Shown: positions 17,337-61,141 of the stretch, one piece after another
Numbering within the stretch: the first letter of the stretch is position 1
How the letters are laid out: every line of letters starts with the position of its first letter
DNA from: Lytechinus pictus
Taxonomy: Eukaryota
Direction of reading: 5' to 3'
DNA length: 64,000 nt
Assembly (NCBI RefSeq): GCF_037042905.1
Contig: NC_087245.1
Coordinates: forward strand, 21,516,001-21,580,000
Made by a program: the position numbers and the translations under genes
Notes under the pieces: generated by a model
The model's input: only the letters and a program-made list of their open reading frames with translations
The model's database searches: none
Told to the model about the DNA's origin: nothing

Positions 17337-17418
17337 GTCATGGTGGCCGAGTGGTTAAGGCGTTGGACTCGAAATCCAATGGGGTTTCCCCGCGCAGGTT
17401 CGAATCCTGTCCATGACG
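17337..17418 (+). tRNA. tRNA-Ser, anticodon CGA
   Basis: 82 nt; acceptor stem GTCATGG/CCATGAC; A-box TGGCCGAGTGG; anticodon arm TTGGA-CTCGAAA-TCCAA; long variable arm GGGG-TTT-CCCC; GGTTCGAATCC T-loop; discriminator G; followed by a T-run Pol III terminator. Confidence 0.97.
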
Positions 17419-28017: not shown

Positions 28018-28530
28018 TTTGGATAATGTAGCCTGTAAACAAAGAAATAGAAATAAAACATTGTTTAGTCTAGAGATATCAATTTCATTATCATTACCAA
28101 AAGCCAATATCAAATCTGATTGATAATCAATTTCGAGTTTCCATTGTCTCTTTGAAGCCATTCATTCTTTAGCCGGTTCTCCAAACCCTATACTTGAGAC
28201 GGAAATAGCGTCAAGAAACTTGCATGATGTGCTACGCCCCACCATATTGTTATTACCACAAACAATGTTCATGTATATCCTGTGTTCAATTGTTCTGTTT
28301 CAAATGAATTGACGTAAAACAAGAAATCAGAAGAAAAGAAACAGATAGTTTGGCCTGATAATGATTATCGATTCCCCTGCATGCTGACATATTCTACTTC
28401 GCATGCTCATCTGTCTCAGGCTCTCAGTCTATTTGGAAATTGATTTTTTGGGCGAAGGTGACCCACTCCTCCCTTAACATTTCAATACAACAATTAGTTT
28501 CCGGTGTACTGACAGAAAATAAAGAAATTC

Positions 28531-30376: not shown

Positions 30377-30460
30377 GTTGCTATGAGAAGGTAGCAACTA
30401 GCTTCATGTTTCTATGGCAACTGGTAAATTGGATAAAGCACGGTTGCCCTCGTGGAAAAC
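30377..30460. promoter_or_regulatory. Cluster of RFX X-box motifs
   Basis: Consensus-quality GTTTCTATGGCAAC at 30408-30421, plus GTTGCTATGAG...TAGCAAC (30377-30398) and a GTTGCC half-site (~30443). Confidence 0.65.
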
Positions 30461-34174: not shown

Positions 34175-34417
34175 GGGGGCGTCATGGTCAAGTGGTTATG
34201 ACTCTCGTTTTTCAATGAGAGGGGCCTGGGTTCGAATCTCAGTCACGGCGTGTTTTCCTTCAAGAAATTTATCCACATTGTGCTGCACTCAACCCAGGTG
34301 GTGTTAATGGGTACCCGGCAGGATTTAGTCCTTGAATGCTCCAAGCGCCTGTATACCAGCTGGAGCTACAGCCGGGTATAGTGCGCCATTGAATATAATC
34401 GGCGCCTCATATATACA
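34175..34417 (+). mobile_element. tRNA-derived SINE
   Basis: Head with A-box TGGTCAAGTGG and B-box GGTTCGAATC, followed by a SINE-like core (CAACCCAGGTG...AATGGGTACC) instead of a tRNA 3' acceptor strand; AT-rich tail interrupted by a MITE. Confidence 0.75.
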
Positions 34418-38137: not shown

Positions 38138-38793
38138 AATTCAATTCAATTTTTTCAATTCAATTCAATTTATTTTTCTCAGTATAAAAACAATATAAAT
38201 AGTACAAACATGAAATAAATCAGACATTGACATAAATAAAGTATTATACTGAAAGGGTAGCAGCCAAAAAGAAGTTAACCTTATGTACGGCCGACCCAAA
38301 TAAAATAATACATTATTTGAACAATTAAAGTAGAAAAGGGGAAAGAATTACCTAACTAACCCAAACAAACAATCAGAATAATAATTACATAAAAAATGAA
38401 TAAGTAGTGATGATTTGGTATTTACAATTTCTCCTAAAAACATTAAGAGAGCAACTATCCTTAAGTTCCTCTGATAAAGTATTCCAAATTAATGGTCCCC
38501 TATAAAAAATTGAGTTTTGAAATAATTTTGTTCTTACTTTAGGTATATGAAAATCATTATTGCCCCTGGTTGTATAATTATGTACATTACGATTTAAAAC
38601 AAAATAATTACATATTGACTGCTCAGGTAAAAGATATTTATAACACTTATACATAAAAATTGCAGTCTCATAATTGTAAAAGTCATAAAATTTCAAAATC
38701 CTCTGAGACTTAAAAATTGGTTCTGTATGATCATAAAAAGACGAATGGTTAACAATTCTTATCGCACGTTTTTGAAGTTTAAAAACATAGTTA
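38138..38793 (-). mobile_element. 5'-truncated L2/Crack-type LINE fragment
   Basis: ORF 38385-38696 ...IFMYK....LP...YF..N..VHNYTTR...FHIPKVRT.....SIFYRGP.IWN.L; (AATTG)n tail at ~38138-38170 on the minus strand. Confidence 0.8.
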
Positions 38794-38797
38794 TTAA

Positions 38798-39383
38798 AGG
38801 AGAATGAAACTCTTAGAGCAGGTTAGCTTTTGTGAAAGCAGAACAATCAAAGAATAAGATTCAACAAAAGTTTGAGTAAAATAGGACTAGCAATAGAAGA
38901 GTTATGAGCATTTGAATGTCGGAGATCACTAATGCTATGGAGATCCTCCCATTGGCAATGCGACCAAGATCTATGATGTCACAGATGAACAACTCTCCCC
39001 TTTTGGACACTGAAAATATACCCCAAAACATCTCTTTTTGCTCATTCTAATCATATGACAAACGATTCATCAATGATATAATGTTGTGAAACCTCTGTAC
39101 TTGTCCTCTCATAAAGAGAACAGCTCACCTTGTGATAGACTCTATAAAAGTGAGAATATAAGTGAAATAAGTACTAAAGTAATGAGGGAGTTGTACGTGT
39201 GTGACATCACAGATCTTGGTTGCATTGCCAATGGGAGGATCTACATGGCATTAGTGATCTCAATATTCAAATGCTCATAACTTTCTTATTAATCATTCAA
39301 TCTTCATCAAACTTTCAACAATATGTTTCTTTGATTTTTCTCTTTTATATGGATTCAGCTGGTTTCAAGGGTTTCATTCTCCT
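38798..39383. mobile_element. Kolobok-like MITE with TTAA TSD
   Basis: TTAA-AGGAGAATGAAAC ... GTTTCATTCTCCT-TTAA; ~80-bp internal inverted pair 38900-38982 / 39200-39282. Confidence 0.85.
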
Positions 39384-41534: not shown

Positions 41535-41595
41535 GTTGCTAAGGTAAACCTATGTAGGAAATGCATGCATATCGCATATCGCATATATTGTTTAC
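41535..41595 (+). promoter_or_regulatory. X-box-like and forkhead (FoxJ1-type) motifs upstream of ODAD4
   Basis: GTTGCTAAGGTAAAC at 41535-41549 and TGTTTAC at 41589-41595, ~105-165 nt before the ATG; RFX and FOXJ1 are established motile-cilia regulators. Confidence 0.5.
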
Positions 41596-41700: not shown

Positions 41701-41814
41701 ATGACGGAGGGAGAAACAAATCAAGACTCTTTTGCCATTTATATGGCAGAAGGTGATGTTCTGTTTAAGCAAGGAGAGTACAAAAAAGCATTGCATAGTT
41801 ACTCGACGGCATTG
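41701..41814 (+). CDS. ODAD4: ODAD4 exon 1a (MTEGETNQDSFAIYMAEGDVLFKQGEYKKALHSYSTAL)
   Basis: acaATG start; donor GTGAGT at 41815, phase 0. Confidence 0.88.
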
Positions 41815-44800
41815 GTGAGTTGAGCTGCTTTCCGTGAGTGACCGAGTTTAATGTGGACCGGGTGGGCCGTGGGAGAGAGTCAGACTCAGAGTCAGAGAGA
41901 GGAAAAAAAAACAATGAAAAAAAAAACAGAATGAAAGAAAGGGTGATACAAATACAAACTTGAGTCTTCACATAAGCTTTGGAGAAGGGTAGAGACTAGT
42001 GTAGTGAGTCCTTTTGTTGTCTGGTGGAAAAATATGGTGGAAAATAGCGAATTTTGATGACAAACGGCTACAGATCAGGATCGGTCATGTTCTTCTTCGA
42101 TTGCCGTCAGTGCAGCTACAGTAATAAAAGTTAGATCTACAGCAACTGGGCGTTGTGGCGTGCGCCTGTAATCCAAGCTGTGGGGAAGTTACAAATTGAC
42201 GCAGGGGTTCGAGCCCTGGTCACGTCTTTCGGATGGCGACGTTAAAGGTCGGTCCCAGACGTAAATAATCATATCTGATTGATACACGTCTGACAAAACT
42301 CAAGTACACACACAAATACACACAGCTGAGCGTACGAACGTGCCAGCCAATCCGCTGGCACTTCTTCTGTACACTCGGCTGTAACTTATTGTACATGTAG
42401 CTGACAGCGATCGAACAAGAACCTGGCTGACCCGCCCCGATCTGTTTGTCATCAAAATTCGCTATTTTCAAGCATATTTTTCAGAAGCTGATTCCATTAT
42501 AATTTGATATGAATTCATCTTTATCATTTCTTCCTTTTTTCCCCGTCAAAAAGCAAAATTTAGGAATAGATATTCTAGATCTGATCGAGGAGGGTGCAAG
42601 AACGCACTCTTTCTCCAGACCATAGACGCTGTAGCTGTAGTTAAGCGACGGTTGTTTGCTCCACCATTTACAAGCCCAATGGCCGTCATCCGTCTGTGTA
42701 GGAGGACAGAAAAAAATCAGAAAATGTTGAAAAACTCCTCTGAAACAGCGGATTTATCAGTCTAATCCCTGACAGAAATAGACCTGTTTATTGGTCTATC
42801 CAGGCCTGGGTCTATCTAACGTTAGAAATAGAATCTAGATCAAACTTTATAGAGTTAGATCTAGATCTATAGCAGTATAGGTCTAGATATTGAGGAGTTT
42901 TCAGAGGTAGTATATAGTCTAAGAGTGCAGTGATTGTGAGCAGCAGGAAAAAACAACCATCGAACTCATCCTGGGAAGTCGATGGATCTACCATCGAAGA
43001 GAAAGTCAGTCACCCTCATCTTGGTATCCTCAAGTCTGGAATACGATTGGATCCAACTGGCGACATTATTGGCACCGGTATTCGTACTTTCTTTGCTCTC
43101 ACTGGTACTGGAGCATATACCGGAGGTCTGGTTCCTACTCTTGTATCCCAGCTCTGGAAAACTTTCTGCATCCCTAGAATGCTGCACGGGTCCTCTATCC
43201 ACAAGTTCACTAAATCTATGCTTGTAAAGTTACACCGGGCTCAATCCCATCTGTTTAAGCAAGTTCTAGGGATCCCAAAGACTGCTGCCGACGAGATTGT
43301 CTACCTCCTCACTGACCTCCTTCCAGTCTCATCACAAATAGATCTCAGGAAACTGCTGCTTCTAGGTCAACTCGTCAACCTCGATCACAGCCGCTTTGAG
43401 TTTAGAACATTCCTGGAAGCCCTCAACTTAGGCTCTCCTACAATACGGCTCTTGCAGGAGATAACAAAGAAGTACAATCTTCCTGATCTTCACAGCATTC
43501 ATTCGAATCCTCCCGTATACTCATCTTGGAAGAGATTGGTCAATTACAGAGTGAACCTGCTGACCAAACACAACACATGTCAAGGAATCCTTTCCAAGCC
43601 ATCTCTTAAGTAATGGCAAGATTGTATACCTCCTGCTGCTAAACTCCTGTACCTGAAAAGTGTACCCTCTCCTGTCTTACGAAGAGCATTTCATTTGTGG
43701 TGAGAGCTCAACTCCTCAGAGCCACCTTACTTAACACAGTGTCGTCTTTTCACGCTGAAGAAATCAACCAGTCGCACTTGCCCTCTATGCAAATCTGCCG
43801 ACGAGACTGTGGAACATTTTACTGGGCAGTGTCCCAACCTAGACCATCTCCGTCAAGTGTTTATTGGCAAAAAATAGAATCTCCAAATTGTTTTTATTGT
43901 TCAGCTTTCCCAGAGACACTGGTCCATTTGTTTTGTGAATGTCCAAAAATTACCCCGCTTTGGCAAAACCTATTATCTTTAATCAGTACAAAAATAGGAG
44001 GTCACCTAAATTGGACAACTTTTGAGAAGATGTTTGGTGTTTCTAATGATTCAGTTCACATGAAATGTATAAATTGTTTAGTACTTTATCTGAAATTTTA
44101 TATATACCGTTGCAGATTTAAAAAACTGGAACCAAATTTCGACGCCTTTATGATTTTCATCAACTACAAAAAGAAACTTGATTACAAAATAGCAGAGAAA
44201 AGAAATAAATTGGGTATTCACTTTAGAAAATGGTCTTTTTCATTTGAAACTTCGAGGCCTCAGACTCAGTCCTGATTCTTTGGTATTTCTGTACCAGACA
44301 TGTTCTTAATCAGATAGTGTGCTTCTACTATTTTCACAATTTTCTCCTAATTGTGTGTGTTTTTATGTACAGTCAGTTTATTACTCATTAGTGCATAGGC
44401 TTTTTGTTGTTGTTATAAGTATGTATGCTGGCAATTCTGTAAACGTGTTGTGTTTGTATATTAACTTGTATATATGTTAATAAATATATAAAGAAAAAAA
44501 GAAAAAAAAGGTGTTTATTGGCAAAGTCAAGGACTGCCTTATGGACTTCCCAACATGTGTCAATCTATATGTCAATGCCAACCCACAGGACTTTACTCAG
44601 GCTACCCTTATACCATTTTACTCTTGTTTGCCCAATGAAGTACACAATAGTCTACTTTTATCATCCCTCTTTTTCCTCCACAAAATTCCATTCTGATATG
44701 GTTCAAACCTCCTAGCCAGAATGACAGTGTACATGGAACAAATCTGTTTTCCTTGGACCCTAGGAATCTCCAAATAGTGGAGGGATCAGTTAAGAGAGAG

Positions 44801-47800
44801 AGAGAGTATAGAAGTCTAGACTATGGCTTTGCTAAAATAAAGCAGCACAGTGATCCGGTAAACGGGCAAGGCTTTGATTTGCTACGACTAAGCTAAGTCT
44901 AGCCAACGTCAGTAGACCTAAGTAGATCTACTTAAGAGTCTAGATCCAAGTATTTTTTTTAACCAAACCACATCTTAAACTGGGTGATTACCCTACATCT
45001 CTCAATACAGATTACCAATACAAGTTCCCTTTTCAAAGTCCCCCCACAGAAGTTAAAATTTTCATGTTTAGAATTGTTATCTTGTCTATTTTGAGAGAAA
45101 AAAAAATTAGGATGATACAATGCAGGGACCCATTTGGTTTGACCTCATTCGAAAACCTCCCACAGGCTCTAAGTGTTTTCATGGATGGATGACAGTTAGC
45201 TTGAACTAGAGGCTTTAGTCTTATGACAAAATATTGCTTACTCAAGCTGACATAAGAAGATGCCTGACTGCATTATGAGTAATTAGCTTGCATTGGCAAA
45301 ATTTTTCAACTCTGCTGAAGCTTCCAGGCATCATGTAAATGTACAATGACCCTGACTTCTTAAAAGTGAACCTGTTCAGTTTGTGTTGAGTTTATCAAAT
45401 TATTTAATATACAGTTTCCACCAACATTTCATAAACATTAAAAGCAAATGGTTGAGAGAAGCCATTCATGTCTTTGATGAAAACCATAAACATTGTGTCA
45501 TCTGTACATTACGCAGTTCTTGTTCATTCCTGAACCTGGAGTGTTGGCCCAAATTTATTCTGACTTGAGTACTAATGAACCAACCATTGTGGAGGTGTGG
45601 GGGGGGGGGGGGGGGCGGTGATTGTTTCAGCAATTTCCATTTTGATTTGTCTTCCAAAAAAGTAGATTACAAGCAAAATGCTAATTAAAGAATGCCTAAT
45701 GAACAAGATATTCATAAAGGGAATGAAAGTGAAAATTTATGTTAAAGACTATATTGCACATTAAAATACTCTAATACATGTATACCGAGATATTTAACTG
45801 TGATAGTAGAAATTCAGCAGAGATAAATTTTATTTGAGAATTTTAAACACATAGGACCACGCTACCCTTCCCTTCTCAATAAATGGATTCATCCACTCTT
45901 TATTGATCACTTTGCAAATGGAAATCAATATACTTTCTAGCTGGTACATTCCCTGATCAAGTCTATAGAGATACCCCTTTCCTTTATCCATTGTTATCCA
46001 TTGTTGAGACCTACTCAATGATGCATTCATGAATATGCATGAGGTCAAGAAGACATGAATATGCATTGCTGTTTGTTGCTATGACTTATCTCAAAGGGGC
46101 TCTTCATGCTGTACATGTAGTGTAATGGCTGCCTGCTGAAACACAAAGACTTGCACATCATCTTGGATATCTGTCACTGTACTGAAGTTGGATATTGGTT
46201 GGATATTTGAAGGAGCGAATTTAGATCCATCATGGATGAATATGTGGATCCCATGCAAGAGCGGGAGGAGCAGTTGAAGCTCCTGCAGTCGTATATAGGA
46301 GAAGCGGAGGATCACATGAGAAAGAGAGATTACAGACGTGCAATGGAGGGCTATAATTTAGTATGTGCATGTTGGATGTGTGTGTGTGTGTGTGCACATA
46401 CATGTAGCAAAATGTCAATTGAATTAAAAATAGTGCTTGGGTTTTTAAGAAATCATATTTATCCTTATCCATGTCCAATTCAAATTTTCTATTAATGAAT
46501 TTCACCTACCATTGACTTGTTTAAGAAAGGCAGATCTTGCTCATGCTGATTTTTTTAAAATGAAAAACTTGGTTGTAATTGTTTTGCAGGCAACATCGTG
46601 AGATTCTCCCATTGATCAAAATATAGGGAGATAATCATTATTTATGCCTGGCATTTATAAAGTTGTATTTTTAAAGGCACACTATACTTTAGCTTCAAAT
46701 TATTCTTCCAGCGCTTGTTGTATTCAGGGAATTAATCCTGCTGGGTGCCCATTCATGTCACCTTTGTTTAGTGAAGTAAAAATTTTCTAAATTTGATATA
46801 CTCTGTATGCAATGGTCCAGAGCAAAAAGTTTTGTCAACACAAACACATCTGGCAAAAATACATGTAGATATAAAGGTAAGTTTTTGTGACTTTGTTTTA
46901 TAGGCCTACATGCATTGTAATGCACCTAGTTTGAAATGGTTAATTTTCATTTCTTTTCTCTTGTTATTGTTTTGTAGGCTTTAGAAATAGAACCCACAGA
47001 CAAGAACTGCTTGGTTGCCAGATCTAAGTGCTACCTTCAACTCGGTGATTCCAAACAAGCATTAAAAGATGCTGAGGCAGCACTCTCAGATGATAAAAAC
47101 TACATTAAGGTTAGTCATAAAGCCCTCCAACAGGAAAAAAAGGAATAAACAATAAACAAATTTGATTAAAAAACAATTATTATAGGTGATAAGCAAAAAA
47201 AAAATCAACATATAAAAAGAGGTGATCTAAAGGATAACAGAATGATATGAACTTAATGAAATATTTTTCTTATAAATGGCCTTTGAGTAATATAGAATTG
47301 ACATTAAATTGTGTCTGCCAATATGATTTTGAGTGGAAAGTTGACCGTTCCTCCTAAATAGATATTTTCATTCAACTCTGTTTTCCTTTGAGCGGTATCT
47401 GTGCTGATTATAACATTTATCACCTTAATGGACTTGCTGTTTTTTCCTGTTTCTTCAATGATGAAAGTGTATAAAGCATATTGATTTCAATTCATTGTGG
47501 TATTAACTGCACATACAGCCAGCTGTAGAAAATGGTCAAGAAGAAATATTCATTAACTTATACATGATTATATTCATTTTCAGTGCTGTATCTTTTACAA
47601 CAAGTCAAGAATCAGAAGTAAAGTTTAAGAAATTTTAACAAATCATTTTAGCAAAGCCATATGCTTTTGTGTTTATTGGATAGGCTTATTGATGTTTAAT
47701 GAAAGATTTATTTCACTTTTGTTGATATTTTGCATACACCTTTCTGGTATGTATTTTTTCTTTAACAGGGTTTATTTCAGAAGGCTGAGGCGCTTTATCA

Positions 47801-50800
47801 GATGGGAGACTTTGAGATGGCCCTTGTCTTTTATCACCGCGGCAATAAATTTAGACCAGAGCTCCAAGAATTCCGTCTTGGCATACAGAAAGCACAAGAA
47901 GCAATTGAAAACTCAATAGGAAGTATGTGAACTAGTTTACTGCGCTTGATAGAATACATGCATTATACTTCTAGTTATGTCACTTAGCTGATTTATTTTG
48001 AGAGATATGATTAAACCCCATTCGCATTCTGTCAAGCAATAAATGAAATAAAGCGACCTTCATCATTACATTACAAACACCTGCCCAGAACCAAACATAC
48101 ATGTAAAACTTGTTAGATCTACATAAAACATTTGAAGTAAAAATATTAACATACATGTATGTTGGTACATGTATACTCGTAGCATGCACTCTGTAAACAA
48201 TGAATTTTTGCCCATTTGGGCTTTATCAAGTGTTTAATGAAATATCAAAATGCGTCATATAACATGTCTAGTAAGTAGCGTACACTCTACTGAAGCCCTT
48301 TTATTTATTTATATTATCTCTTCTTCTGAAACCAGGTCCTTCCAAAGTAAAACTAGAAAACAAAGGGGATTTGTCTTTTTTCAATAAACAAGATGAGGTG
48401 AGTTCTATTGATAAGGAAGCTTTCTTTAGAGGTATTTACAATGTTTTTTGCTATCAAGACTAGGATTAAAATTTTGTTTAGAGACAGTTGAATGAGTAGT
48501 TTCACTTTGAAAATAAAATTCATATTGAGAATCAAGCCATCTGGCTTCTGTATATTACAAAGAGTTGCAATATATTTAATTCAAACTTGAATTTTGATTG
48601 ATAGAAATTACTTAAGTAGTAAAATCTAAAATACAAATTCCTATCTCTTCACTACACAATTTTAGATTGCTTTGAATCAATCGCAATTTGAGTTTGATTG
48701 GATCTATCACAACTCTTTTTGTAAATGGGATGTGGGGTCTGTTTTTTATATTGATGAAAAACATTGTAGTCATCACTGTTAAAACTTAAATATTTTGTGC
48801 TGGTCTCCTTTCTACTTGGTAATGTGCTTAGTTATCCTGAAGATTGAATTTATGATATTGAAGGTATTCGTGTAGAGGTTATTAGTAAGGTGACACGACG
48901 CACGCTCATGCAGCATTTGCTTCTGTCTCAATATCTCAGAGGGCATAGGGTTAGAGTTTAGGGTTGGAATATAATTTTTTGTTCTGAATAATGCAAAGAT
49001 AAGGATCAGGGGGCCGTTTCATAAAGCTGTTCGTAAGTTAAGAGCGACTTTAAGAACGACTGGTGATCCTTTCTTACGCGCAAAACCATCGCTAATGAAT
49101 ATACCATTTATCAAAAGAAAGGATCACCAGTAGTTCTTAAAGTCGCTCTTAACTTACGAACAGCTTTATGAAACACCCACCGGGGCTTATTTAGTTTTGG
49201 AGTTTAGGTTTAATTTTCGGCTTAACTAACTTGCATATTTTCCATCAGAGCGATTGTTACCCATTCTCCATGTATGTTCTGTCTGTAACCTTGTAGGTAA
49301 AGTCGAAAAAACCAGCAAGGATGGGATACAGTAAACCTATGGCAAAACAACAAGAAAACAAGAAGAAGAGACCGGTCAAGCCTGACCAGACTCCAGCTGA
49401 AAAGAAGACGGCCAAGCAACTTCTAGGAGAGCTCTATGCTGATAAGGAATACCTTGATAAACTTTTAAGAGACGAAGGTAATCATATATTATGCAAATGT
49501 GCTGCCTGACTAAGTGAGTCAAGGTCCATTTCTCCATTATTTTTTTGTTTCTTGCTATTTGTATAAAAAAATGTAAAACAGACATAAGTTCCTCGTATCA
49601 GATGTGTGTCTCCAGTATTGTTCATCTCCCCAGATCTCTTTCTGTCTCCTCTCCTACATGTACATCCCATTATCCAATTGTGCTCTAATTGTATCAATAC
49701 TTTCATGTAACTTGTTACTATGTAGACCTGACGAGAGCAGATACAGACAGCGGTAATAGAATCTACGACCTTGTCAATGAGGGTCTTCAGTACCTAGACA
49801 CCAGGACAGAGTTCTGGAGGCAACAGAAACCTATGTATGCCAGGAAGAGAGAAAAGGAAGAGGCCAAAGGAGCAAGAGAGAAAAATAAACAACAACCAGC
49901 TGATCCTGCCAAATATGTTCTTAAGAACCTTGAAGAAATTGATGCAGGTAATGAAGACATTGGTGCATGCACATTAGTTCATTGTACTCTATGATCTCAC
50001 TTTGAGTTGAGACATTGCCCAGCTATTACACAAAGTAGTTTTGGCCGAGTGTCCATAAGATGGATACAACCTCAAAGAACTTTAGGCATTTGGGTATGTG
50101 AGATTTTGACGTACTATCCTTTTCGAGGCCAGCCGGATGTAGCTATCTTTCCAAAGTGAAGCTGAGGAAAGATAGTGAGTACATCCAGCTTGCCAAGCGA
50201 TGATTGATGGGGAAACTTCCCTTTATTAACATGATTGACTTATGACCAATCCTATAGCACGATTCTTAGTATGCGGAATATGAAATAACTTATCAAAATT
50301 CATCCCCAAATTGTCCTCCTCAGATCAGAAGGATAGTATAATGAACAAATGAAGATTCATAATTTGTTTTATATTTTTGCATCCTGTTATTTGATGAATA
50401 AATATGAAAGATCGATCCTGTGATCTCTTTTGCGGCTCTGCATAAGGCGTTGCAGTAGGCATGTTTTGAGGTCATTCATCTTTCTGCCCTGGTTTTTTTT
50501 TTCTGGCAACAACTATAAATAGTTAGACTTCAAACATGGATCATCTATATGCATACAGGTGTGACAATTAGATTTTGGAGTCAAAGTCAAAGAGATCATT
50601 ATTCACATTAAAGTACCTTGTGATAATGAAAGAACTGTTTAACTTCATCAAGGTATCAGCTTCAATTTTTACCTGTATGTTTATGTGAGTGAACAAGGTT
50701 GTCATAAGTTATTGATCCAATAGATTTAAAACTTTCCATATTCTGAAATCAGTCCCAAGTATGCAAGTACATGTATACGGTATGTAGCTGTAGATAGAAT

Positions 50801-53800
50801 TCTGCATATTGGAAAATTTTGCAGCTTTGCATTTCATGAATGAAACTGAAATGCTATTTGATTCTTTAACTCTTTGTGCGCTGGGCCATGAACCCCTCTG
50901 TGCTGAATTCTTTTCAGGGAGGGAAACAATGCATTGTTTGCTTGAGTGTGAAATGCGAAGTTCGCACGGCACCAAGTGTGCATACGTGCGAAGTACGCAT
51001 GAAAAGGGTTAAGCAAGACTTTGTGATAACAATAATAATAAAAAGAAAAAAAAGAAATGCATTAAGATCTCAATACATATTCTCAGTGTATTGCCCCAAA
51101 ATGTTATTAATTTATTCCAATTCGACATAACAATAGAAAACAATATGGCTGAACATTGACCATAATTCCTTACCCCCCCTTTTCATAGAAATAACACATC
51201 TCACATGCTTTTCACCCTTGCAGCTCTGGCTGAGAACAGACCCCGAGATGCCCTCAGACAAGCCCAAAAGGTGCTGAGGAACGTTGAGAGTTGGTCAGAG
51301 GACGATGTCCCAGAGAAGCAAGATTTCATAGCTAACCTTCACAGCTGTCTTGGTAATGCCTACCTTGATCTTGGTAAGATGCCTGATGCTGAACAGAACC
51401 ACCAGAAAGACTTGGACCTCTCAACAAAACAGTAAGTCCTGTTTTTTCTTTTTAATTCATCTTCAATCAATTTTGAAAAATAATTTGTATTCTTTGAAGA
51501 TACGAATGACTTTACGCACGACTGGTGATCCTTTCTTGTGCGATGTGATATCCCTGTATAATTGATATATGACCTAAGAACATGTTCCAGTTGTGTGTAA
51601 CTTTACAAACAGCTTTATGAAACACCCATCAGGTCTCATGATGGATGTTATTGCTTTAAATGTCAATTTATTAAATATCAGCCTAGTTTAATAGTGAACT
51701 AAACCCGATTGATGTTTACACATTATTGGTTAGATTGAGGAAATGTTCCCTTTGGTCTACATTGCCCAAAATGGTGATGTCACATGATGTTCACTTTGTC
51801 ATGTATATGTGACAAATTAGATTAGGGAGCTGATATAGCTGACTGTAACATTTTGCTTAACTGGCTTATTAAGTTCCAAAATATGAGCCTCTGAATATTT
51901 CCTGACGTTTATGAGATGACTTTATTCCAAGTAATATAATTTAGGTTGTTGCAAATAATATTTTTGCACACAGGAAAAGGTATATGATTATAGTAGAAGT
52001 ACTTATCAAACCCAGTGAATTTGACTAACGGACAACACAACTTTCGTACTGTAGTCATTTGTAAAGCTCCTCTTAACTTCATGAACAGATTTACTCAATG
52101 AATATGGATACACCAATTAACAGTTGTTGCAAAATAATATTTGGTCTTTGAATGCCATTCCTTTATGGTATTGTATGTGTATGCACTGTGATTGTCATGA
52201 TCATTTTTGAAAACTTGCTTCATCATCACCTTTTATAATTTTCACCTCTTGTTCTCTTGTCATTTCAGCGAAAACGACGAGGGTAGATCAAGAGCGCTTG
52301 ACAACCTTGGTCGGGTCTATGCCCGCATCGGTAAGTTTGAGAAGGCTGTGGAGAACTGGACCGAGAAGCTACCGCTGGTGAAGTCTGCCCTCGAAGGCAC
52401 ATGGTTGTACCATGAGATCGGGCGATGCCATCTGGAGCTAGGAGACTTCCAGGAAGCAAGGGACTGCGGACAGAAGAGTCTCCAGGCCGCCCAGGAAGCC
52501 GGGGACGATGTCTGGCAGCTCAACGCCAGCGTACTCATTGCACAATCAGAAGGTAAGAGTGCATACAAGGGGGCTGTGTTACATAGAGTTCTGTATAACT
52601 TGACAATTGCACAGAAACTCCAAGTCATATGCTGTATATAACATTTCACAGCCCATCACAGCATTGATAAGTTTATGCTCAGGTACAGCTTGCAAGTGCT
52701 TACTTATCATTTCAATTGATTATTAGATTATGTATGAAATGCCAAATATGCAAATTTGCAATAGAAGTCAAACTTCAATCAATGGTATACTGTGTCAAGG
52801 GACCACTTGAAAAAGAATGCAGAAATGTGTATATTAATATTTGTTAAATTTTTGTTACGGTTGAAAATGGGAATTGACCGTGAAAGAACTTTAAGATAAA
52901 CTAGATAATTGTTTGCTTGAACGAACAGTCAAACTTGGAGACCTGCAAGAGGCTATCGATTCCTTTGAGAGATCCCTTGACATGGCCAAGGTCCAGGGAG
53001 ATGAGCCTGCACAGAAAGCCATTGCCAGTGCCTTGGAGGACCTCAATGAGAAGATTGTTCAAGGGATCAAGGAGAAGGAGGCTGAAGGAGACATCTTACA
53101 AGAAGAACAGGGAGGAGAGAAAGAGACGCAGGAGGAGAAGGTTGTTGATGAAGCAAAGGAAGAAGGTACGTTTAAGATTTAATACGCTTGTGGGAACAAA
53201 ACATAGGCTAATGTGATAAAGTTCATGAACAATTGATTCTTTGTTGGCAGGTGGCCAAAAGAAGACTGGGCAAGGTTTGCAATCGATTGTCAATTTCAAT
53301 ATCAAATAAGCAGTTGATATTATCAGTTTTTATTAATAACAAATCTGTTTATACTCACGGTTGCTAGAAGAAGGTAAGTAATCAGTGGCACATTTGCAAT
53401 CAACTACAAAATTTTGATTGATTGTAAGAAATAAACATTAACTGAGGTTAATTGTCGGTTTCCTAGAATGCCGTCCTAATGTTGATTTAATATGCTTGTT
53501 TGAACTAAAAGCTATCTGATGAAGTTCCAGGACAGTTGAGTCTTAATTGACAGAGGACAAATACAAGCATAGTTTAATTGAATGAGAGAAAGCGTGAATA
53601 TGTAGTAAGAAGTGTGTAACATGATTCATGTAGTTCTGAAAGTTAGTGTCGAGGTGTGATAAGTAAAAGTGTGAGCATCACAAGCAAGAATTGAAATTCA
53701 AAGCGGTAAGTGTACATTTACACGTATGATGTGAAAGAGACAAGGACAAAGAGAAAATGGGATAAAGAAATTAAAAGATATGTATTGAAATTGAGATTGA

Positions 53801-56800
53801 AATACAATTCTGCATGCCTCCATCAATTTCAGTTTATACATCAGTGCATGTTCTGGTACTATTCATGTCGAAGCCATTTCTTAGACTAATCATGAATGCA
53901 CAGTATAACCCCTTGATAAGTTCAATATAACTAACAACACAGAACAACAACAATCCCGTCCCGACGATGATGAAGAATTTGAACAGCAGAGGTCACAGGC
54001 TAAAGAGGAAACTTTCAAACCAAAAGAAGACGAACAGGAGGATAGCAATCAGAAACAAGATGAAACGGAACAGAAAGAAGATGAGAAAGATGATGTTGAG
54101 CAACGTCAAGGCCACGATGGTGAAAACATTTCCTTGTCAAAGATTTGTGCTTTTGGTGGCCTGCTTGTCTAATATATCCTCATGTTGCAAAGCCTTTCAT
54201 CTGCTAACCTTGCTTGTGTCATCAGTGCATTGCTAGTCAAAGCAAAGCTGGAACAGCATTCTCTTATGCAATACTCGTATACATACTCAGAAGTTTGCAT
54301 TTCCCAGGTGTTAGATATCAATTCTAAAACGAAGTTAATGTAAACCTTGAAAAAAAAGTTACTAAAAAAGCAACAAAATGGGCAAAATTGAGACAAGATT
54401 TTTTTTCCCTCAAGATTTAATATATAAAATGTTAAAACAGGACAAAAATAATATAACAAGTGTCCTACCTATGAGGTACATGTAGTGAGCATCTTGGTCA
54501 AACGTCTAGTTGTGCATTTTATGAATAAAAAAAATTATAGATCTCCTCCCCTGATAACCCACACAGAATGATTTCAATTTGGGAAGTCTGCTGACCATGC
54601 ATGGACTTCCTTAAAATGAAGTGGACAGCAGTTTCTTATAAAATTGCTCATATTTCAGAAAAAAGACTGATATTCTCCCAAAATCATGAATGAAATGTCA
54701 GATACTAGTGTTCTTGTGCAAGTTATTACAATCCAGGCAAATGATAGGACACTCGATCCAGAATATTTTTTTTGTTCCTTCAAACACTTCAAATGGCAGT
54801 GAAATTTTCAGGAAGGGCTAATTCTATTCTGACTCAATAGCATGTATTCAAGTACATGTTCAGTTTGACACATGGAAATGCTTACCTCTTTTGCTTTCAA
54901 TGTTACTAGCATAACTCTAACTATCCTTCATACTACTTGAATAACCTTGAAATGATGTCCTCCCCTCCTGCTGCCCTCTCTTATCCTACATGTAAGCTTC
55001 ATTTTGAGTTCTATATGGTTAGATCTGTTCATGGTCCTGGTCAGGTTATGCTTAACAGTGGTTAAGGGTATATTATTTTGCTTACCATCATTGCATTCTT
55101 GCAGCCTGTTCTTGCTCATTTACTCAAGTCATATCATAATTGCATTCTTCCAATTTTATTGCCCTGGATGGGTTGCTGCATGTACCATTGCTATGTCAAC
55201 AGTGCTGAAGGGTAAAGTGTATTTTAGTTTACTAACCAACATTGCATAATGATTGTCTTGCAGCATTTTCTTGCCTACTTATCATTTAAACTTTATAACT
55301 GCAACTGTATCTGATATTCTGATCCACCTTTGCTTTATTGAATTCTGTCTTAACCTAAATAGACTGGGCCTATTTCGATGCCTAAGAAGACTGGGGGGGG
55401 GGGCTGATTCAGCCCCCCCCTATGATCTCAGCCGTCGACCGCGCGATCGCGACGAAAATTGGCACGTGCATTACCCATGGCATAATCTCCAAGTCTGTAG
55501 GATCAATTTTTCCGAAAAATCTCATAATTCATTAATTATGCTAATTTATGCGTAAAATCCAAGATTTGCTCTAATTAACTAAATAAGGCCTCTAAACTGC
55601 TAATTTTTTATTCACAGACTCTTTGAAGGATTCTGATCAAATGTACTTAAAAGAAAATTCAATATCACAATTCTTTTCTTATGTATTTTATTGTTTTTCA
55701 AATTTCTTATGTATTTCTTTGTTTTTCGACTTTTTGTATTTTATTGTTTTTTCAATGGAAATTGTCCGCGACTTTATTTTGACCATAAACAAGATGAAAT
55801 TAATTGAGTTTGATTAGTAAAATTGAAAATAATGATACATTTATGAATTTTGGCTAAAAACACAATTTGCATTGGATTTGTACATAAATTCACGTTTTTG
55901 AGCAATTTTGGGTCGACATGCACTTACAAAATGTTGCGTAATTTCGGAACCACGTACCCGAGCGTCGCAAATTTGGTCTCAAAAGTTGCGCAAGACTTGA
56001 AAGAAAAAAGTCATGGAACGGCGCGGCGCCAGCTTTTCGCGTAACAGATTTATCGCGAAAAATGTTGAGGGGGGGGGCTGAATCAGCCCCCCCCCCAGTC
56101 TTTTTAGGGTTAAATCTTGCCATCCTTACATTACTTCTCTCAATCTTCATTCTGTGTATATTCCATTGGGACATTGTTGCACTAATAATATGCATTTTTA
56201 AAAGAAAAGTAACAGGATGAAAGAAATATCTGTCACGTCATTGCACTCTACATTCTTCATGGTGATATGGATGGATACATTGTACTGGGACTTGTAAAAT
56301 TATTATATTCTGCAATCTGCATCAGTTTACTTGATAGTAATGGTTGCCGGTCAATTGATAGATAGTGTTATTTGTCTTGTACTATACATTATGTACATGT
56401 ATTTCTGGAAGGAAATGCTTGTCAATGTGCTTTATACATCTCTCATGTCAAATTGTCAATGACTTTGCTGCATTCTTATGTAGTCATGCTTTTAATTTTT
56501 TTAATATCATTGACATAAAAAAGTTTAGTTCCTAACTCTTTAAGTGATGATTTCTGAAATACCTATAGCTGCAAAATGTGGGCAAGATCAGGAATTAATA
56601 CTTGAACTTACACATACGTAATCCTGGTTTGTTAGCAAATCTCAGAAGTTTTCAAATCTATTTGTATTTCTTTGGGATAAAGACTGTTCATTACGATTGC
56701 TTGTATGGCAATGGCCAGATGTGGTAGGAGCTCCACGTTAAGGTATAGGTATGGCATCGTTTACATGTACGACTACACCGATTGCAAATTATATTACAGA

Positions 56801-59800
56801 ATAATGCACTCCTATGATACAAACATTGTACTTGTATCGTCAAGCACATATCTGTTCATTTATTAATCCAGATATTCAATATAAAGTAGGCTCGCATTTT
56901 TGTTATGCAGATATACCCATCAGAAAAAAGTAATCACCATTTTTGTTTTTTAAGAAATTGTCACCGCTTGCAAAAGTATGCGTTGCTCAGCACAGCCTGT
57001 GTTTGGTTTATACATCTTCAAGCCGTAATTTTAATTTTGAATGAATGAAGACCCACTTTGCACAGTGAAATATTGCGTATGTACAGCATCTACACATATT
57101 TAATTCACACAAATTTTGTCCAAAGAAAGCTTTCAACTACTAGCAGCTCATTGATGAGCATGCCTTCAAACTGTCTGTTTATAGTAGGATGCAGGCAGGC
57201 TCAGTATTTACCCTTATCATATTAAAAAGCCAAAGTGATGTTCAGTTTGTACAATACAGCAATTGAAGAAAGTCATTTCATTTAAGACCAATATTGGGCA
57301 ATGTTAGCAAAATAGTCATGATGTCCAGTGCTATTAATAATTTATTTAATCTTTATTCAACAGGGTAGGACCATAATTAATTATTTAGAATACTGTTATT
57401 TTAGGGGCCCTGCATAACATTGAGTACTAAGACATGAATATACATGAGATCATTACTTTTTGACTATTTAGTATGAATACATCAATACAAAGCAGGATTA
57501 TATACCCTATTTTCAGTGACCTTAAATACATGTGAATTCATCATGCCAATATTTGTATGATTCAAAACTTCTAACCTGCTAATCGATAGAGGGATACTTA
57601 TGAATACATGTAGCCTTTTTTTTTAACTTGGTTTTCATTTCAGGGTTGTACAGTATTATAGAAACACTCACCTCTCTCCATTGGCTGACCTAATCTTGTT
57701 TGTACATTAATTTGTCTTGTTCAGTGAGGACTTCTAATTGTTCACCTGTACTGTTCATTTTGTGCTGGCTGTAATAGCTTCATGTTTGCTTTCAAAACCA
57801 TGGATCTACTTAAAGTTAACCAGTGTGGTGTACAAACTTTTAATATTGTAATCTTTTCAAGAAGGAAGTGAAGAAATCGTTCTCATCTAGAAGCACGCTT
57901 ACTTCAAACTCTGATTAAATTTGCCTCAATCACAGTCCCAGGTCTTCCAGATCTTAACTTCAAAGGTTTAATACCATCATATATCAGTGAGCATTTTGGG
58001 CCACCCTGGTTAAACTTCTATAATGTTGGCTTGCTTTGCTTGAAAAAAAAAATATATATGTGGCATGCTCTTTTGTGTGTTCACATACACAATTAATTCT
58101 AATAAAAGTAGAGAATGTCTTATATTAATAGAAGGATATAATAAAAACTGAAACAAAATACCCAATGATATGTTTGTAGCATATGAAGCCTCTTATTACC
58201 AAGGCTAATATTAGTATCAATAATAGATATTGAAAGTAATAAAATCTCAAAAGAGGAATTAAAATCTTAAAAGAGAAAATGACAACCCGAAAGCTCAATG
58301 CCAATAAATGAAAGAAATTACTAATTCAATTAATATATTACAGATATCAATTGATCAGCAACATAGAATTCTAGAATTGTATTTAATATTCAAACAATAG
58401 AACAAATTATATTTTGCATTAACAATAATAGCTATCATTTCCTGTAGAGCCATTTGAAGCAAATGCAGCTGCTCAGAAAATTTTGTTGTAAATCATTAAA
58501 GTACTAGCGGTATAGTGCTAGCTCTGGGCAATGGTTGATACTAGTAACCTATAAACCCTACAGGATCGAGGTCCAGTAGTAGATCTTCCAAGAGCAGCAA
58601 GAGTAGCAAAAGCAGCAAGAGAGGATCTGGTTTCTTTGGCCTTCGCAGGAGCTCATCGAGCGGCAGTGAGAAAGATGAGAAGAAATAGAAAGGTGATGAT
58701 CACATCTATTTAGTAGGATCATCTCATTTTGTAGAGGGGCACCCTTTTTGGCTTTTGGCCGTCAGGATGTAGTTTGCAAGCAAAGACTCAAATTTGACAC
58801 CTCGATAAACTATGTCTAGAATGGAGACTAGTCCCTCTTTTCTGAGTCAAATTGGAATAAGAGAGCAGCAACAGTACTTTAAGTGAATGTAGCCCCTTCA
58901 GAGACTGATTTTGTTTATATAATTTGTAGGCAAAAACCAAAGGTATGTGCCTGTAAAACCTGCTGCTTCTCAACCAGGGTTTTTTTTCCTCTGAAGTCTG
59001 AATGTCATTTTTTTTTTACTGTACATACAAATTGTGTTCAGTAATTCAGAAGCTCTCTCCAGGCACAGCCAGTTCTTATAATGATTATCTTCATTCTTGC
59101 AAAATACTTAGAAGTGATGATTGCATGACATGCTTTCTAACATAGATATCCCTGCATATCCCTGCATACAACAAATAAGCAACCTTCCGCTTTATCACAG
59201 CATATCTTTCTTTTCTACTTTTTGGTCTTCTGTCATAGAAAGCACAGACGTGAGCTGCTGTTGATATTGTTATTAAAGATATGATTTAAGAAATTAAAGC
59301 TAGCTATCCCCTATTCCTCAGCCACCCCCAAAATTTTGTCAAGTTTGTTTGAGAAAGTATGAGTTAACACGTCAGTGAAGACTGCCTGCCTGTAATGATC
59401 ACTTTTCTTTTCTTCCTTGAGCAGCCTTAATATACAGGATTCGGTTTACCAAACCCTCTCCTGGGTCCCGTAACACAAAGCTTAGCAATCATCTTTTTAT
59501 AAGAATATCTTAGCAATTGATCGCATTGACTACAATGTAAAATCAGTCATTAAATTATTATGATAATCACTAACCTCTGTGATATGGGACGCTGATTGTG
59601 TTCACATTCACAGTTTTATTCTATCCCTTCAGTTTAATGTTGTCCATTTATATATTATCTATATACCTCATGATTTGTAGTGTGTGATTGCCAAATTGGA
59701 AAAAAAGGCTTCCTTAAATCTGTATGCATTTACCTCTTTGCTGTGAACAAATGTAATTTCTTGATATAGGGGGCTAATGTAAAATAATTATACTTTGAAT

Positions 59801-61141
59801 TGCATTTGATCACAGAATTTAGGACAAGGATGCTTGAACTGATGATTTCATTTGGCAAGACCTTCATCCAGTGGCGGACCGTGACTCAGAGGAGGCAAAG
59901 CATTGGAGGGGCACTGTATTGTTTGTGAACAATGCTGTTCCCCTCCAATGCTTTGTCTCCTCCGGGTCACTGTCCGCCACTGACTTTATCCAGTGATTCC
60001 TTCCAATTTTGAGAGCAAAAAAGATTTAAATTATGTACATGCTGTACCCCTCCTACTACACATAACAGTATAGATTTAAGGTCAGGACCCTGTTTCACGA
60101 TACCCATTATCATCAAGTTGCTTTCACTGGACATTATAAGGTGCTATTTTCTTTTATTGTTGTGTCATCGGCTGAGAACACATTTGGCACACACTGTAGA
60201 AATTTAGTTTCTTTATTTGTGTGTGTGGTGAAACAGGGTACTAGTTATCTGGATCTTGCTGTTTTATTAATCATTCAGCTGGTATAATTTCAAGATACAT
60301 GTCATTTTTGAGATGGGAAGGCAGTAACACACAATCCAACTTCCATGTCGTTGAACACCAAGGTCAAGTCCTTGGACCCCCCCTAAAAAAAAAAAAATCA
60401 AGTTTATGTATGGAGTAAATTTATGACTACGTCAAAATGTTATTCACCACAATAAAGTGAGATATGGCTCTTTGAGCTCTTGAATGTGTCAGTTGGTTCA
60501 AGGCATAGTTTTTCTTCATACTTCTGAATATTATGTTGACTCGAGATGAAATGACTCAAGGATTTCCTGTTGATCATATCTAGACGAGTTCTGAATTCTT
60601 GAGCAGTTGATTTGGGCATCGTCCTGATGTCTGTGTACTAGAACTTACTAGATTCCTTTGTCATTGTCATGTCATCATCATTCTTATCCTCAACATAATC
60701 ATCGTCAACATCACCACCATCATCAACACTGTCATCATGATTGATGCCACCATCATTAACATTAATACCATCATCACTATCAATAACATCAACACCATCA
60801 TCATCATTATCGTTGCTGTCATCATCAATACCATCATTTTCGACATGCTCATTATCATCACCATTATCATCATCATCATCACCACCAACACCACCACCAC
60901 CACCCCCTCCACCCCCACTACCACAACCATCACCACCATCATAAACACTAACCATCACCTCACCACCACAAACCTTGTTATTTACATGACAGGGCTATTG
61001 CTGGAGTATGTGAGTTTTAATATGACATTTGGCAGTGTAAATTCTTCAGTAATTTTTGTTATCTCTTCTCTTATGTCTTTTACAGATGAAAAGCCAGCAG
61101 AAGAAAAGACGGATGAGGCAGAAGAGCAAAAGGAAGAATAA
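41701..61141 (+). CDS. ODAD4: Outer dynein arm docking complex subunit 4 / tetratricopeptide repeat protein 25 (about 608 aa)
   Basis: join(41701-41814,46978-47109,47769-47922,48336-48397,49297-49477,49726-49947,51224-51431,52269-52552,52929-53165,53943-54119,61086-61141); all GT-AG introns with matching phases. Motifs match TTC25 as I recall it: YMAEG, DKNCLVARSKCYL, QKAEALYQMGDFEMALVFYHRG, KLENKGDLSF, QLLGELYADKEYL, FWRQQKPMYAR, SRALDNLGRVYARIG, TWLYHEIGRC, WQLNASVLIAQ. Confidence 0.92.
42027..42482. mobile_element. Long palindromic (fold-back) element interrupted by a SINE
   Basis: Arms GAAAATAGCGAATTTTGATGACAAAC / GTTTGTCATCAAAATTCGCTATTTTC; centre GTGCCAGC-caatcc-GCTGGCAC. Confidence 0.75.
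42145..42321 (+). mobile_element. SINE with a 7SL RNA (Alu-domain)-like head and a DeuSINE-like core
   Basis: CTGGGCGTTGTGGCGTGCGCCTGTAATCCAAGCT resembles the 7SL/Alu 5' end; B-box GGTTCGAGCCC; GTCTTTCGGATGGCGACGTTAAA resembles the Deu domain; CA-rich tail; ACAGC on both flanks. Confidence 0.7.
42930..44806 (+). mobile_element. Truncated non-LTR retrotransposon (RTEX-like ORF2 C-terminus with CCHC knuckle), split by an L1/Tx1 insertion
   Basis: ORF 42930-43613 (HLGI...GL.P....LWKTFCIPRMLHG...KQVLGIP) with a stop and frameshift; CPLCKSADETVEHFTGQC at ~43778-43831; frame resumes at 44511-44696; (GA)n at ~44793-44806. Clade assignment tentative. Confidence 0.7.
43872..44510 (+). mobile_element. 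5'-truncated L1/Tx1-type LINE with poly(A) tail and 15-bp TSD
   Basis: ESPNCFYCSAFPETLVHLFCECPK...LKFYIYRCR...KW; AATAAA plus A-rich tail 44479-44509; TSD GTGTTTATTGGCAAA at 43857-43871 and 44511-44525. Confidence 0.9.
46232..46360 (+). CDS. ODAD4: ODAD4 putative alternative first coding exon 1b (MDEYVDPMQEREEQLKLLQSYIGEAEDHMRKRDYRRAMEGYNL)
   Basis: atcATGG start, coding-like composition, phase-0 donor GTATGT at 46361, in frame with exon 2; aligns with the TPR helices of exon 1a. Confidence 0.7.
46978..47109 (+). CDS. ODAD4: ODAD4 exon 2
   Basis: ttttgtAG|GCT...AAG|GTTAGT; ALEIEPTDKNCLVARSKCYLQLGDSKQALKDAEAALSDDKNYIK. Confidence 0.92.
47769..47922 (+). CDS. ODAD4: ODAD4 exon 3
   Basis: taacAG|GGT...A|GTATGT; GLFQKAEALYQMGDFEMALVFYHRG...ENSIG. 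Confidence 0.92.
48336..48397 (+). CDS. ODAD4: ODAD4 exon 4
   Basis: accAG|GT...GAG|GTGAGT; SPSKVKLENKGDLSFFNKQDE. Confidence 0.9.
49010..49180. mobile_element. Palindromic Harbinger-like MITE (degraded relative at ~51505-51630)
   Basis: ~55-bp near-perfect arms GTTTCATAAAGCTGTTCGTAAGTTAAGAGCGACTTTAAGAAC... / ...GTTCTTAAAGTCGCTCTTAACTTACGAACAGCTTTATGAAAC; G-rich/C-rich termini. Confidence 0.8.
49297..49477 (+). CDS. ODAD4: ODAD4 exon 5
   Basis: ttgtAG|GTA...G|GTAATC; ...KTAKQLLGELYADKEYLDKLLRDE. Confidence 0.9.
49726..49947 (+). CDS. ODAD4: ODAD4 exon 6
   Basis: tgtAG|AC...G|GTAATG; ...YLDTRTEFWRQQKPMYARKRE...LKNLEEIDA. Confidence 0.9.
51224..51431 (+). CDS. ODAD4: ODAD4 exon 7
   Basis: ttgcAG|CT...CA|GTAAGT; ...ANLHSCLGNAYLDLG...HQKDLDLS. 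Confidence 0.9.
52269..52552 (+). CDS. ODAD4: ODAD4 exon 8
   Basis: tttcAG|C...G|GTAAGA; SRALDNLGRVYARIG...WQLNASVLIAQSE. Confidence 0.9.
52929..53165 (+). CDS. ODAD4: ODAD4 exon 9
   Basis: gaacAG|TC...G|GTACGT; KLGDLQEAIDSFERSLDMAK... Confidence 0.88.
53943..54119 (+). CDS. ODAD4: ODAD4 acidic symmetric (phase 1-1) exon 10, possible cassette
   Basis: ctaacaacacAG|AA...G|GTGAAA; EQQQSRPDDDEEFEQQ...EQRQGHD; 177 nt; weak polypyrimidine tract. Confidence 0.65.
55354..56109. mobile_element. piggyBac-like MITE with TTAA TSD
   Basis: TTAA-CCTAAATAGACTGGG ... CCCAGTCTTTTTAGGG-TTAA; subterminal hairpins GGGGGCTGATTCAGCCCCC at both ends. Confidence 0.85.
58564..58688 (+). CDS. ODAD4: ODAD4 putative alternative terminal exon (Ser/Lys/Arg-rich)
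   Basis: ccctacAG|GA in phase 1 gives GSRSSSRSSKSSKSSKSSKRGSGFFGLRRSSSSGSEKDEKK*; GC-richer coding-like island within an AT-rich intron. Confidence 0.6.
59869..59982. mobile_element. 114-bp hairpin hAT-like MITE
   Basis: CAGTGGCGGACCGTGAC... / ...GTCACTGTCCGCCACTG, palindromic over nearly its whole length; flanks CCTTCATC / ACTTTATC (6/8 match). Confidence 0.8.
60660..60970. repeat. Degenerate (CAT/CAC)n trinucleotide repeat
   Basis: Direct inspection; produces spurious D/G-, M/V- and I/T-rich ORFs in several frames. Confidence 0.9.
61086..61141 (+). CDS. ODAD4: ODAD4 terminal coding exon (DEKPAEEKTDEAEEQKEE*)
   Basis: Strong polypyrimidine tract ...tcttttacAG|AT, phase 1; TAA at 61139-61141. 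Confidence 0.75.

Follow-up and report, generated by a model that had tools for sequence, protein, structure and literature searches.

An ancient alternative first coding exon, probably duplicated, exchanges most of the first TPR repeat of ODAD4 in Lytechinus pictus and other ambulacrarians

In the ODAD4 (TTC25) gene of the sea urchin Lytechinus pictus, two tandem first coding exons, 1a and 1b, are joined alternatively to one and the same downstream exon, as judged from protein records and mRNA-like contigs, and exon 1b is almost certainly a real alternative first coding exon of this gene. Exon 1b probably arose by duplication of exon 1a, and the overall explanation towards which we lean is that of duplicated first exons, from which promoter choice would select the version of the first TPR repeat (TPR1) according to the ciliated cell type. 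Exon 1b is ancient and has apparently not been discussed in the literature, though it is already present in automatic annotation and belongs to a class of events that is itself known.

Structure of the ODAD4 locus

The window, i.e. the whole stretch of 64,000 nucleotides that was analysed (contig NC_087245.1, positions 21,516,001 to 21,580,000), contains a multi-exon ODAD4/TTC25 gene on its + strand, the proteins of which correspond to the RefSeq isoforms of L. pictus (100% identity over both first exons). A tblastn search placed ODAD4 at a single locus in this assembly, and orthology to vertebrate ODAD4 extends over the full length of the protein (E ~1e-155 against the human and bovine chains in 8J07 and 7RRO).

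Exon 1a is the ancestral first exon. Its coding part (41701..41814, + strand, 38 aa) starts with the ATG at 41701, ends at a phase-0 donor (GTGAGT), encodes helix A and most of helix B of TPR1 and is identical to the start of RefSeq isoforms X4 and X6. The coding part of exon 1b (46232..46360, + strand, 43 aa) is identical to the start of isoforms X3 and X5. The initial annotation had credited this exon with its own ATG and a phase-0 donor, and both were confirmed in the sequence: the ATG at 46232 has A at -3 and G at +4 and is the first in-frame ATG downstream of an in-frame stop, and the donor GTATGT lies at 46361, directly after 46360. Exon 1b encodes, in this order, an acidic tip, a conserved helical extension, TPR1 helix A, a turn and most of helix B. 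The common acceptor of 1a and 1b is exon 2 (46978..47109, + strand), which encodes the end of TPR1 and TPR2 and is preceded by a pyrimidine tract at its acceptor (46978); in L. pictus, the junction 46360>46978 rests on RefSeq models. The downstream exons, common to both isoforms, are found within 47769..61141 (+ strand; boundaries approximate, from tblastn), at about 47769, 48337, 49297, 49725, 51220, 52270 and 52868, followed by an optional exon at 53942 and a last exon near 61100, so that the gene spans ~15 kb of the window from exon 1b onwards.

In this assembly exon 1a carries two added codons (AL) before its donor, at 41809-41814, which duplicate the first two residues of exon 2, and the junction of X4 and X6 accordingly reads 'YSTALALEIEP'. 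These codons shift the 1a junction by two residues relative to that of 1b. The AL codons were absent from the 1a proteins of Strongylocentrotus, Heliocidaris, Diadema, Amphiura, Apostichopus and the hemichordates, and their addition in L. pictus may be either a polymorphism or an insertion peculiar to this species.

Several other features of the window were recorded. The optional exon near the 3' end (53942-54118) is acidic and distinguishes X3 and X4, which contain it, from X5 and X6, while at 58548-58688 there is a Ser-rich ORF, possibly a further alternative 3' exon, that looks by eye like the Diadema ODAD4 C-terminus. The ODAD4 proteins of sea cucumbers and brittle stars (P0004, P0005, P0010, P0039, P0040) end in a PF01477 domain, which we take to be PLAT; tblastn found no match to the exon for this domain in the window. 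The intron between 1a and 1b holds two ORF fragments (231 and 210 codons, 42918-44275) that look by eye like the decayed ends of LINE reverse transcriptases, and similar pieces are present at 7482-8072 and 38385-38822. Two Rfam tRNA matches were found at 17337-17418 (64.5 bits) and 34178-34250 (33 bits), the weaker of which may be a tRNA-derived repeat.

Protein and transcript evidence for two isoforms

The 43-aa peptide of exon 1b is single-copy in the genome. The initial annotation proposed an old alternative first exon that gives two N-terminal isoforms. A search with the peptide recovered five database proteins at 84-93% identity among seven candidates, including sea urchin, sea cucumber and other records, and together with the paired isoforms described below this strongly supports that proposal. 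Cluster look-ups identified RefSeq isoforms of the 1b type in L. pictus (X3, X5), Lytechinus variegatus (X3, X4), Strongylocentrotus purpuratus (X1), Apostichopus japonicus (X1, X3) and Amphiura filiformis (X1, X2, X4), and in the hemichordates Saccoglossus kowalevskii (X2, X3) and Ptychodera flava (X1, X3). After the junction, the bodies of the a and b isoforms were identical at 430/430 positions in all six species compared (L. pictus, S. purpuratus, A. japonicus, A. filiformis, S. kowalevskii and P. flava), and the two forms are therefore isoforms and not paralogues.

Unbroken ORFs of the 1b type (560 and 653 aa) were found in P0003, P0039 and P0148, on contigs of 3440, 2575 and 2520 nt, respectively. 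As these contigs measure 2.5-3.4 kb against ~15 kb for the gene, they are most simply explained as spliced mRNAs. P0003 and P0039 group among the echinoderms on the tree of protein bodies in which these two were included. The word shares in four sequencing runs were 0.14-0.16, where ~0.11 is expected for exons 2 and 3 and ~0.16 when 1b is added; these values were not used as evidence.

Distribution and conservation

The retrieved sample comprised 225 ODAD4 proteins of 400 aa or more, drawn from 120 of 842 clusters, with members taken from 30 clusters (for two of these, 15 of 17 and 15 of 54 members). In this partial sample a 1b start (more than 40 bits on the 1b profile) was present in 19 of the 37 ambulacrarian proteins and in none of the 188 others, the best of which reached 15.6 bits; none of the vertebrate ODAD4 proteins retrieved had a 1b-type start. 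Echinoids, holothuroids, ophiuroids and hemichordates possess both forms, and the pair is therefore older than the split of echinoderms and hemichordates, which dates back over 500 million years. Among the 120 of 842 clusters, asteroids and crinoids had no named record, and no 1b isoform was found in the clusters of Diadema (four members), Glandiceps (two) and Heliocidaris (one), which may reflect annotation.

Wider searches gave no further confirmed case. A metagenome scan with the 1b alignment returned 200 pattern matches, none of which was confirmed, and a scan with P0003 returned 37 loci from other eukaryotes, none with a 1b match and P0003's own contig not among them. A search of 1.84 billion representatives with the 1b profile gave one match, a weak negative because the known hemichordate 1b forms, hidden in clusters, were missed as well.

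Within the 43 positions of exon 1b, 18 are invariant in nine sequences, including the N-terminal Met and Tyr4. Over a 27-residue core, echinoderm sequences are identical at 22-26 positions for 1b and at 21-25 for 1a, whereas echinoderm and hemichordate sequences agree at 17-19 positions for 1b, against 22-23 for 1a. Within one species 1a and 1b share only 4-8 of the 27 residues. A tree of these 27 columns (32 rows) gives 1b a long stem of ~1.2 changes per site and short branches beyond it, a shape suggestive of rapid change at first and constraint thereafter.

Predicted structure of the alternative TPR1

AlphaFold2 models were built from alignments of nine sequences per isoform, as single chains with no partner proteins. 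As the overall pTM was low (0.43 and 0.44), our claims are restricted to the local fold. For isoform b the model shows a 24-residue helix (residues 7-30), a three-residue turn and a helix B (34-47) that runs across the junction, with pLDDT values of 87-92. In the model of isoform a, the first ten residues have low confidence (45) and the loop after the added AL falls to 69. Residues 14-119 of the predicted isoform b overlay the TPR domain of PP5 with 1.3 A over 106 residues (Z 17.9), and the results of the fold search were dominated by C-terminal TPRs. The region encoded by exon 1b is thus predicted to pack as a TPR-like helix-turn-helix pair. A TPR_1 scan of the genome, in which 150 of 218 candidates were scored, did not place 1b among the 141 matches listed, and exon 1a itself reached E 0.147.

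The claim that the exon swaps the first TPR repeat of ODAD4 stands for helix A and, in helix B, for 10 of its 14 residues, but not for the whole repeat. In the turn between the helices, KQGE of 1a is replaced by RKRD in 1b, and a conserved helix extending helix A is predicted to replace, in isoform b, the variable acidic tip of 1a. Exon 1b encodes 2-7 residues more than 1a, the net charge of both versions is similar (-3 to -6), and nine residues are invariant in 1b and absent in 1a (E10, R11, E13, K16, H28, R30, K31, D33 and R36).

In vertebrate ODAD4 this end of the protein is reported to lie near the motor. The TPRs of ODAD4, together with ARMC4, bridge neighbouring ODAD1/3 coiled coils, according to the accessible part of PMC8595878, and a zebrafish preprint (10.1101/2024.02.14.580281, accessible part) notes that cryo-EM does not resolve the first ten residues of ODAD4 and, from a personal communication, that the vertebrate N-terminus occupies a small space between the microtubule and the motor domain of the outer arm. 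No solved structure of the 1b form was found among four matching sequences, the solved chains all having a 1a-type start, and no proteomic or structural record of isoform b in the axonemal docking complex was found.

Upstream regions of the two first exons

Exons 1a and 1b most likely each have their own promoter, as suggested by their separate ATGs and similarly placed RFX-type half-sites, and by the fact that no strong in-frame acceptor precedes 1b. The site upstream of 1a (41535..41549, + strand, predicted; 166 bp upstream of the ATG) fits the full X-box-like pattern with one mismatch, whereas the one upstream of 1b (46075..46085, + strand, predicted; 157 bp upstream of the ATG), of which 46075-46083 reads GTTGCTATG, represents only the left half; we presume both to be RFX-type. 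A full RFX X-box consists of two half-sites in a 14-bp imperfect palindrome. The X-box-like element that had been proposed at 46075-46085 is thus present as a half-site but is not a full X-box: it is not among the 30 matches in the search for the full pattern at no more than one mismatch, whereas the 41535 site is. The pattern GTTGCYAWG, picked after both sites had been seen, has four copies in the window where 1.76 would be expected; the excess is not significant, since four or more are found in 8 of 100 shuffles. Two of the four sites precede the ATGs of 1a and 1b in the same orientation.

Two copies of CATGAATATGCAT are located just upstream of the half-site of 1b (46028-46040 and 46054-46066, + strand); we take them to resemble POU-dimer sites. 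The 11-mer core of this motif occurs three times in the window (0.04 expected), and the 13-mer has 465 copies genome-wide against eight for the reversed control, a ~58-fold excess, with 12 genome matches for tandem pairs. Tandem clusters elsewhere (L075-L082) include two near-identical copies of one cluster (L077 and L078). The 11-mer core is contained in an Oct EMSA probe (PMC1800861, accessible part). A dispersed repeat as the source of the 1b promoter was rejected, as the region is single-copy, and so was a common module of POU-like motifs and X-box, which has two genome matches, one of them this site; the half-site was found near none of the 11 other tandem-motif matches listed.

Elsewhere in the window, a cluster of X-box-like sites was observed at 30377-30452 and 30810, with a perfect match at 30408-30421 and one copy of ATGAATATGCA. 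It lies ~2 kb upstream of a 725-codon minus-strand ORF (25984-28161) that resembles by eye a RING/B-box/NHL (TRIM-NHL) protein, and it is possibly an RFX-driven promoter.

Proposed function and its alternatives

In the mechanism we propose, the starting point is the pair of tandem first coding exons of ODAD4, which the protein records show to be spliced alternatively onto exon 2. Exon 1b would have been duplicated from 1a before the echinoderm-hemichordate split, would have diverged fast and would then have come under purifying selection, in keeping with its conservation at the protein level. The two proteins are identical except for TPR1 and the N-terminal tip, and promoter choice would set, for each ciliated cell type, the TPR1 surface facing dynein or tubulin, the remaining docking complex presumably being the same. 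Setting TPR1 at the microtubule-motor end through promoter choice would be the likeliest function, because the vertebrate N-terminus has been reported there.

A cell-type bias in the use of 1a and 1b is fairly likely; the initial annotation had suggested sperm flagella and larval cilia as the two sites. Ap58 has reportedly been characterised in sperm flagella. Since the Ap58 cDNA (BAD38896.2, Heliocidaris) is of the 1a type, we slightly favour the use of 1a in sperm, and 1b might then serve somatic, larval or sensory cilia; alternatively, both forms might occur in one cell. A literature search by accession for the isoform found in sperm proteomes returned no papers, and no match was found in the supplement of PMC11785096.

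Other animals offer partial parallels. In the tunicate Styela clava, RefSeq X1/X2 (P0214/P0054) and X3 (P0215) have identical bodies and differ by an alternative first exon that is joined at the same junction as 1b but has no detectable homology to it: HHalign gave 1.5%, and the Styela exon groups with 1b only on a branch of length 2.8. No alternative first exon was found in the Ciona cluster members listed. Haliotis (P0070/P0114), Mytilus (P0217/P0136) and Lineus (P0086/P0135) have a divergent TPR1 in a second ODAD4, but as two genes and not as exons of one gene. The bodies of these paralogues are 52-54% identical, and the mollusc and nemertean pairs form one lophotrochozoan clade (support 96). 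A shared alternative exon in molluscs was considered and rejected, since their two forms are paralogous genes. The second mollusc paralogue has a remodelled TPR1, and its start nests among the lophotrochozoan exon-1 sequences; the best tree does not favour a common origin of 1b and this second start, although the AU test does not reject it (p-AU 0.172; 27 columns, 32 rows). Both the Styela exon and the second mollusc paralogue resemble 1b in the replacement of the glycine of the TPR1 turn.

A further reading sees exon 1b as an ambulacrarian innovation through which one class of cilia, for instance sensory cilia specified by POU factors or the reversing cilia of the ciliary band in dipleurula-type larvae, obtains a second type of outer-arm docking site. 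Ciliary bands with reversing cilia are a feature of these larvae. Ambulacrarians, the tunicate and the lophotrochozoans would then each have reached a second ODAD4 with a remodelled TPR1 (by exon duplication, by an alternative exon at the same junction and by gene duplication, respectively), and this repeat would be a recurrent tuning point between the microtubule and the dynein motor. We consider this reading tentative and rather unlikely. It is weakened by Saccoglossus, a direct developer that retains 1b.

Rather unlikely, too, is a purely regulatory subfunctionalisation, in which 1b would act as a second promoter and the two TPR1 versions would be functionally interchangeable. The shared fold of the helix pair and the similar net charge fit this idea, as does the motif set that exon 1b has of its own. 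Interchangeable versions are harder to reconcile with the 1b-specific invariant residues listed above and with the long stem and short branches of 1b, which fit a distinct, fixed function, and promoter choice between functionally different TPR1 versions remains our preferred reading.

Less likely still is a role of isoform b away from the axonemal docking site, for example in sensory or neuronal cilia, or in the cytoplasm during the pre-assembly or transport of outer arms. POU factors are linked to neurons, and POU-like motifs lie upstream of 1b. The longer, rigid helix of isoform b could be too large for the narrow gap in which the vertebrate N-terminus reportedly sits, and the ciliary signal was lost when zebrafish Odad4 carried a tag at this end, according to the accessible part of the preprint cited above (10.1101/2024.02.14.580281). 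On the other hand, the rest of the protein is unchanged, and the few residues that 1b has in excess of 1a are a small addition, which argues against a separate location.

Origin of exon 1b

The initial annotation described 1b as a duplicated exon that aligns with 1a without gaps. Both peptides are present and the alignment is indeed free of gaps, but only 5 of the 27 core residues are identical in this genome. The duplication draws support from HHalign, from the common junction and from a clean reverse profile test, but it is not proven, as one score test overlaps the background.

In the comparison of 1b with non-ambulacrarian exon 1, HHalign gave a probability of 94% and an alignment without gaps up to the last residue of the exon. 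The 1b profile scored 60 outgroup exon-1 cores at a median of 11.5 bits (range -6.8 to 22.7), whereas 30 unrelated TPR loci of this genome reached at most 0.5 bits. In the opposite direction, the outgroup exon-1 profile scored 1b at 12-24 bits, but this test fails to separate 1b from the background because unrelated TPRs reach 19.5 bits (2 of 30 at 19 or more). The internal repeats of ODAD4 attained at most 1.7 bits in profile scoring. Hemichordate 1b and outgroup exon 1 have the pattern F-x-x-Y-L-x-E in common. The boundary between exons 1 and 2 is identical in three other eukaryote loci (L015, L021, L032), and 1b ends at this boundary in the same phase. In two metagenome loci (L008, L022) the exon-1 region is interrupted by an additional intron halfway through TPR1 helix A.

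On the sequence comparisons, the homology of 1a and 1b as tandem first exons can be stated with moderate confidence. The low identity of 1b to 1a and the overlap with unrelated TPRs in the one score test would also suit a real exon 1b recruited from an unrelated TPR or helical sequence that converged on 1a; we regard this as very unlikely in view of the clean 1b-profile separation and the HHalign probability, the identical junction and phase, the F-x-x-Y-L-x-E pattern and the low scores of the internal ODAD4 repeats. Least credible is the idea that 1b is an internal cassette added after 1a to give an extra half-repeat, for although in the Holothuria leucospilota model KAJ8019702.1 exon 1a is fused to the interior of 1b and weak in-frame AG sites exist at 46262-46289, these sites are preceded by only 1-7 pyrimidines in 14, Met1 and Tyr4 of 1b are invariant, 18 of 19 full-length 1b-type proteins begin with 1b, and the exon ORF P0038, which matches the Holothuria 1b stretch, starts with its own Met, so that the fusion is read as a prediction error.

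Relation to known systems

The homology of both first exons, their alternative joining to one exon and the deep conservation of both place the pair in a class that is already recognised. N-terminal substitutions derived from tandem exon duplication are typically ancient and often tissue-specific, and make up 39 of 236 human events in the accessible part of the catalogue by Martinez Gomez et al. (2021, PMC8373072). The class described there, with a duplicated 5' coding exon, alternative promoters and homologous N-termini, corresponds to what we propose for 1b; TTC25 is absent from the main text of this human catalogue, and the 1b event is ambulacrarian.

The gene itself is a clear orthologue of Ap58/ODAD4 of the pentameric outer dynein arm docking complex, with the same TPR solenoid (PMC8595878, accessible part). 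Versions of docking or motor subunits that differ between cell types have been reported, in the accessible parts of the sources, as sperm-specific outer-arm paralogue swaps (CCDC63 for ODAD1 and DNAH8/17 for DNAH5/9; PMC11779644) and as distinct DC2-like subunits in the gill cilia and sperm of Ciona (PMC4427456). Those swaps involve separate genes and other subunits, whereas here a single ODAD4 gene exchanges ~40 residues, as known from sequence records.

The statement that this had not been described holds for the literature searched, mostly abstracts with few subscription papers covered, in which no description of ODAD4 first-exon isoforms was found; nor do the accessible parts of PMC10266980 and 10.1101/153437 contain anything on such isoforms. 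It does not hold for automatic annotation, as the RefSeq models of at least seven species already include the 1b form.

Significance

Why the same conserved axoneme beats differently in sperm, in epithelia and in larvae is still being asked, and the swaps known so far, few in number, involve paralogous genes. The exon pair of ODAD4, which is a gene for human ciliary dyskinesia, offers a natural two-state swap of TPR1 that has been kept in echinoderms and hemichordates, which marks the TPR1 surface as functionally important and gives a clean test of its role in a tractable animal. With two isoforms in existence, ODAD4 assignments in sea urchins must state which isoform is meant, and exon 1b also explains the fused Holothuria gene model. 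The swapped N-terminal end, which reportedly adjoins the motor in vertebrates, may tune different kinds of cilia.
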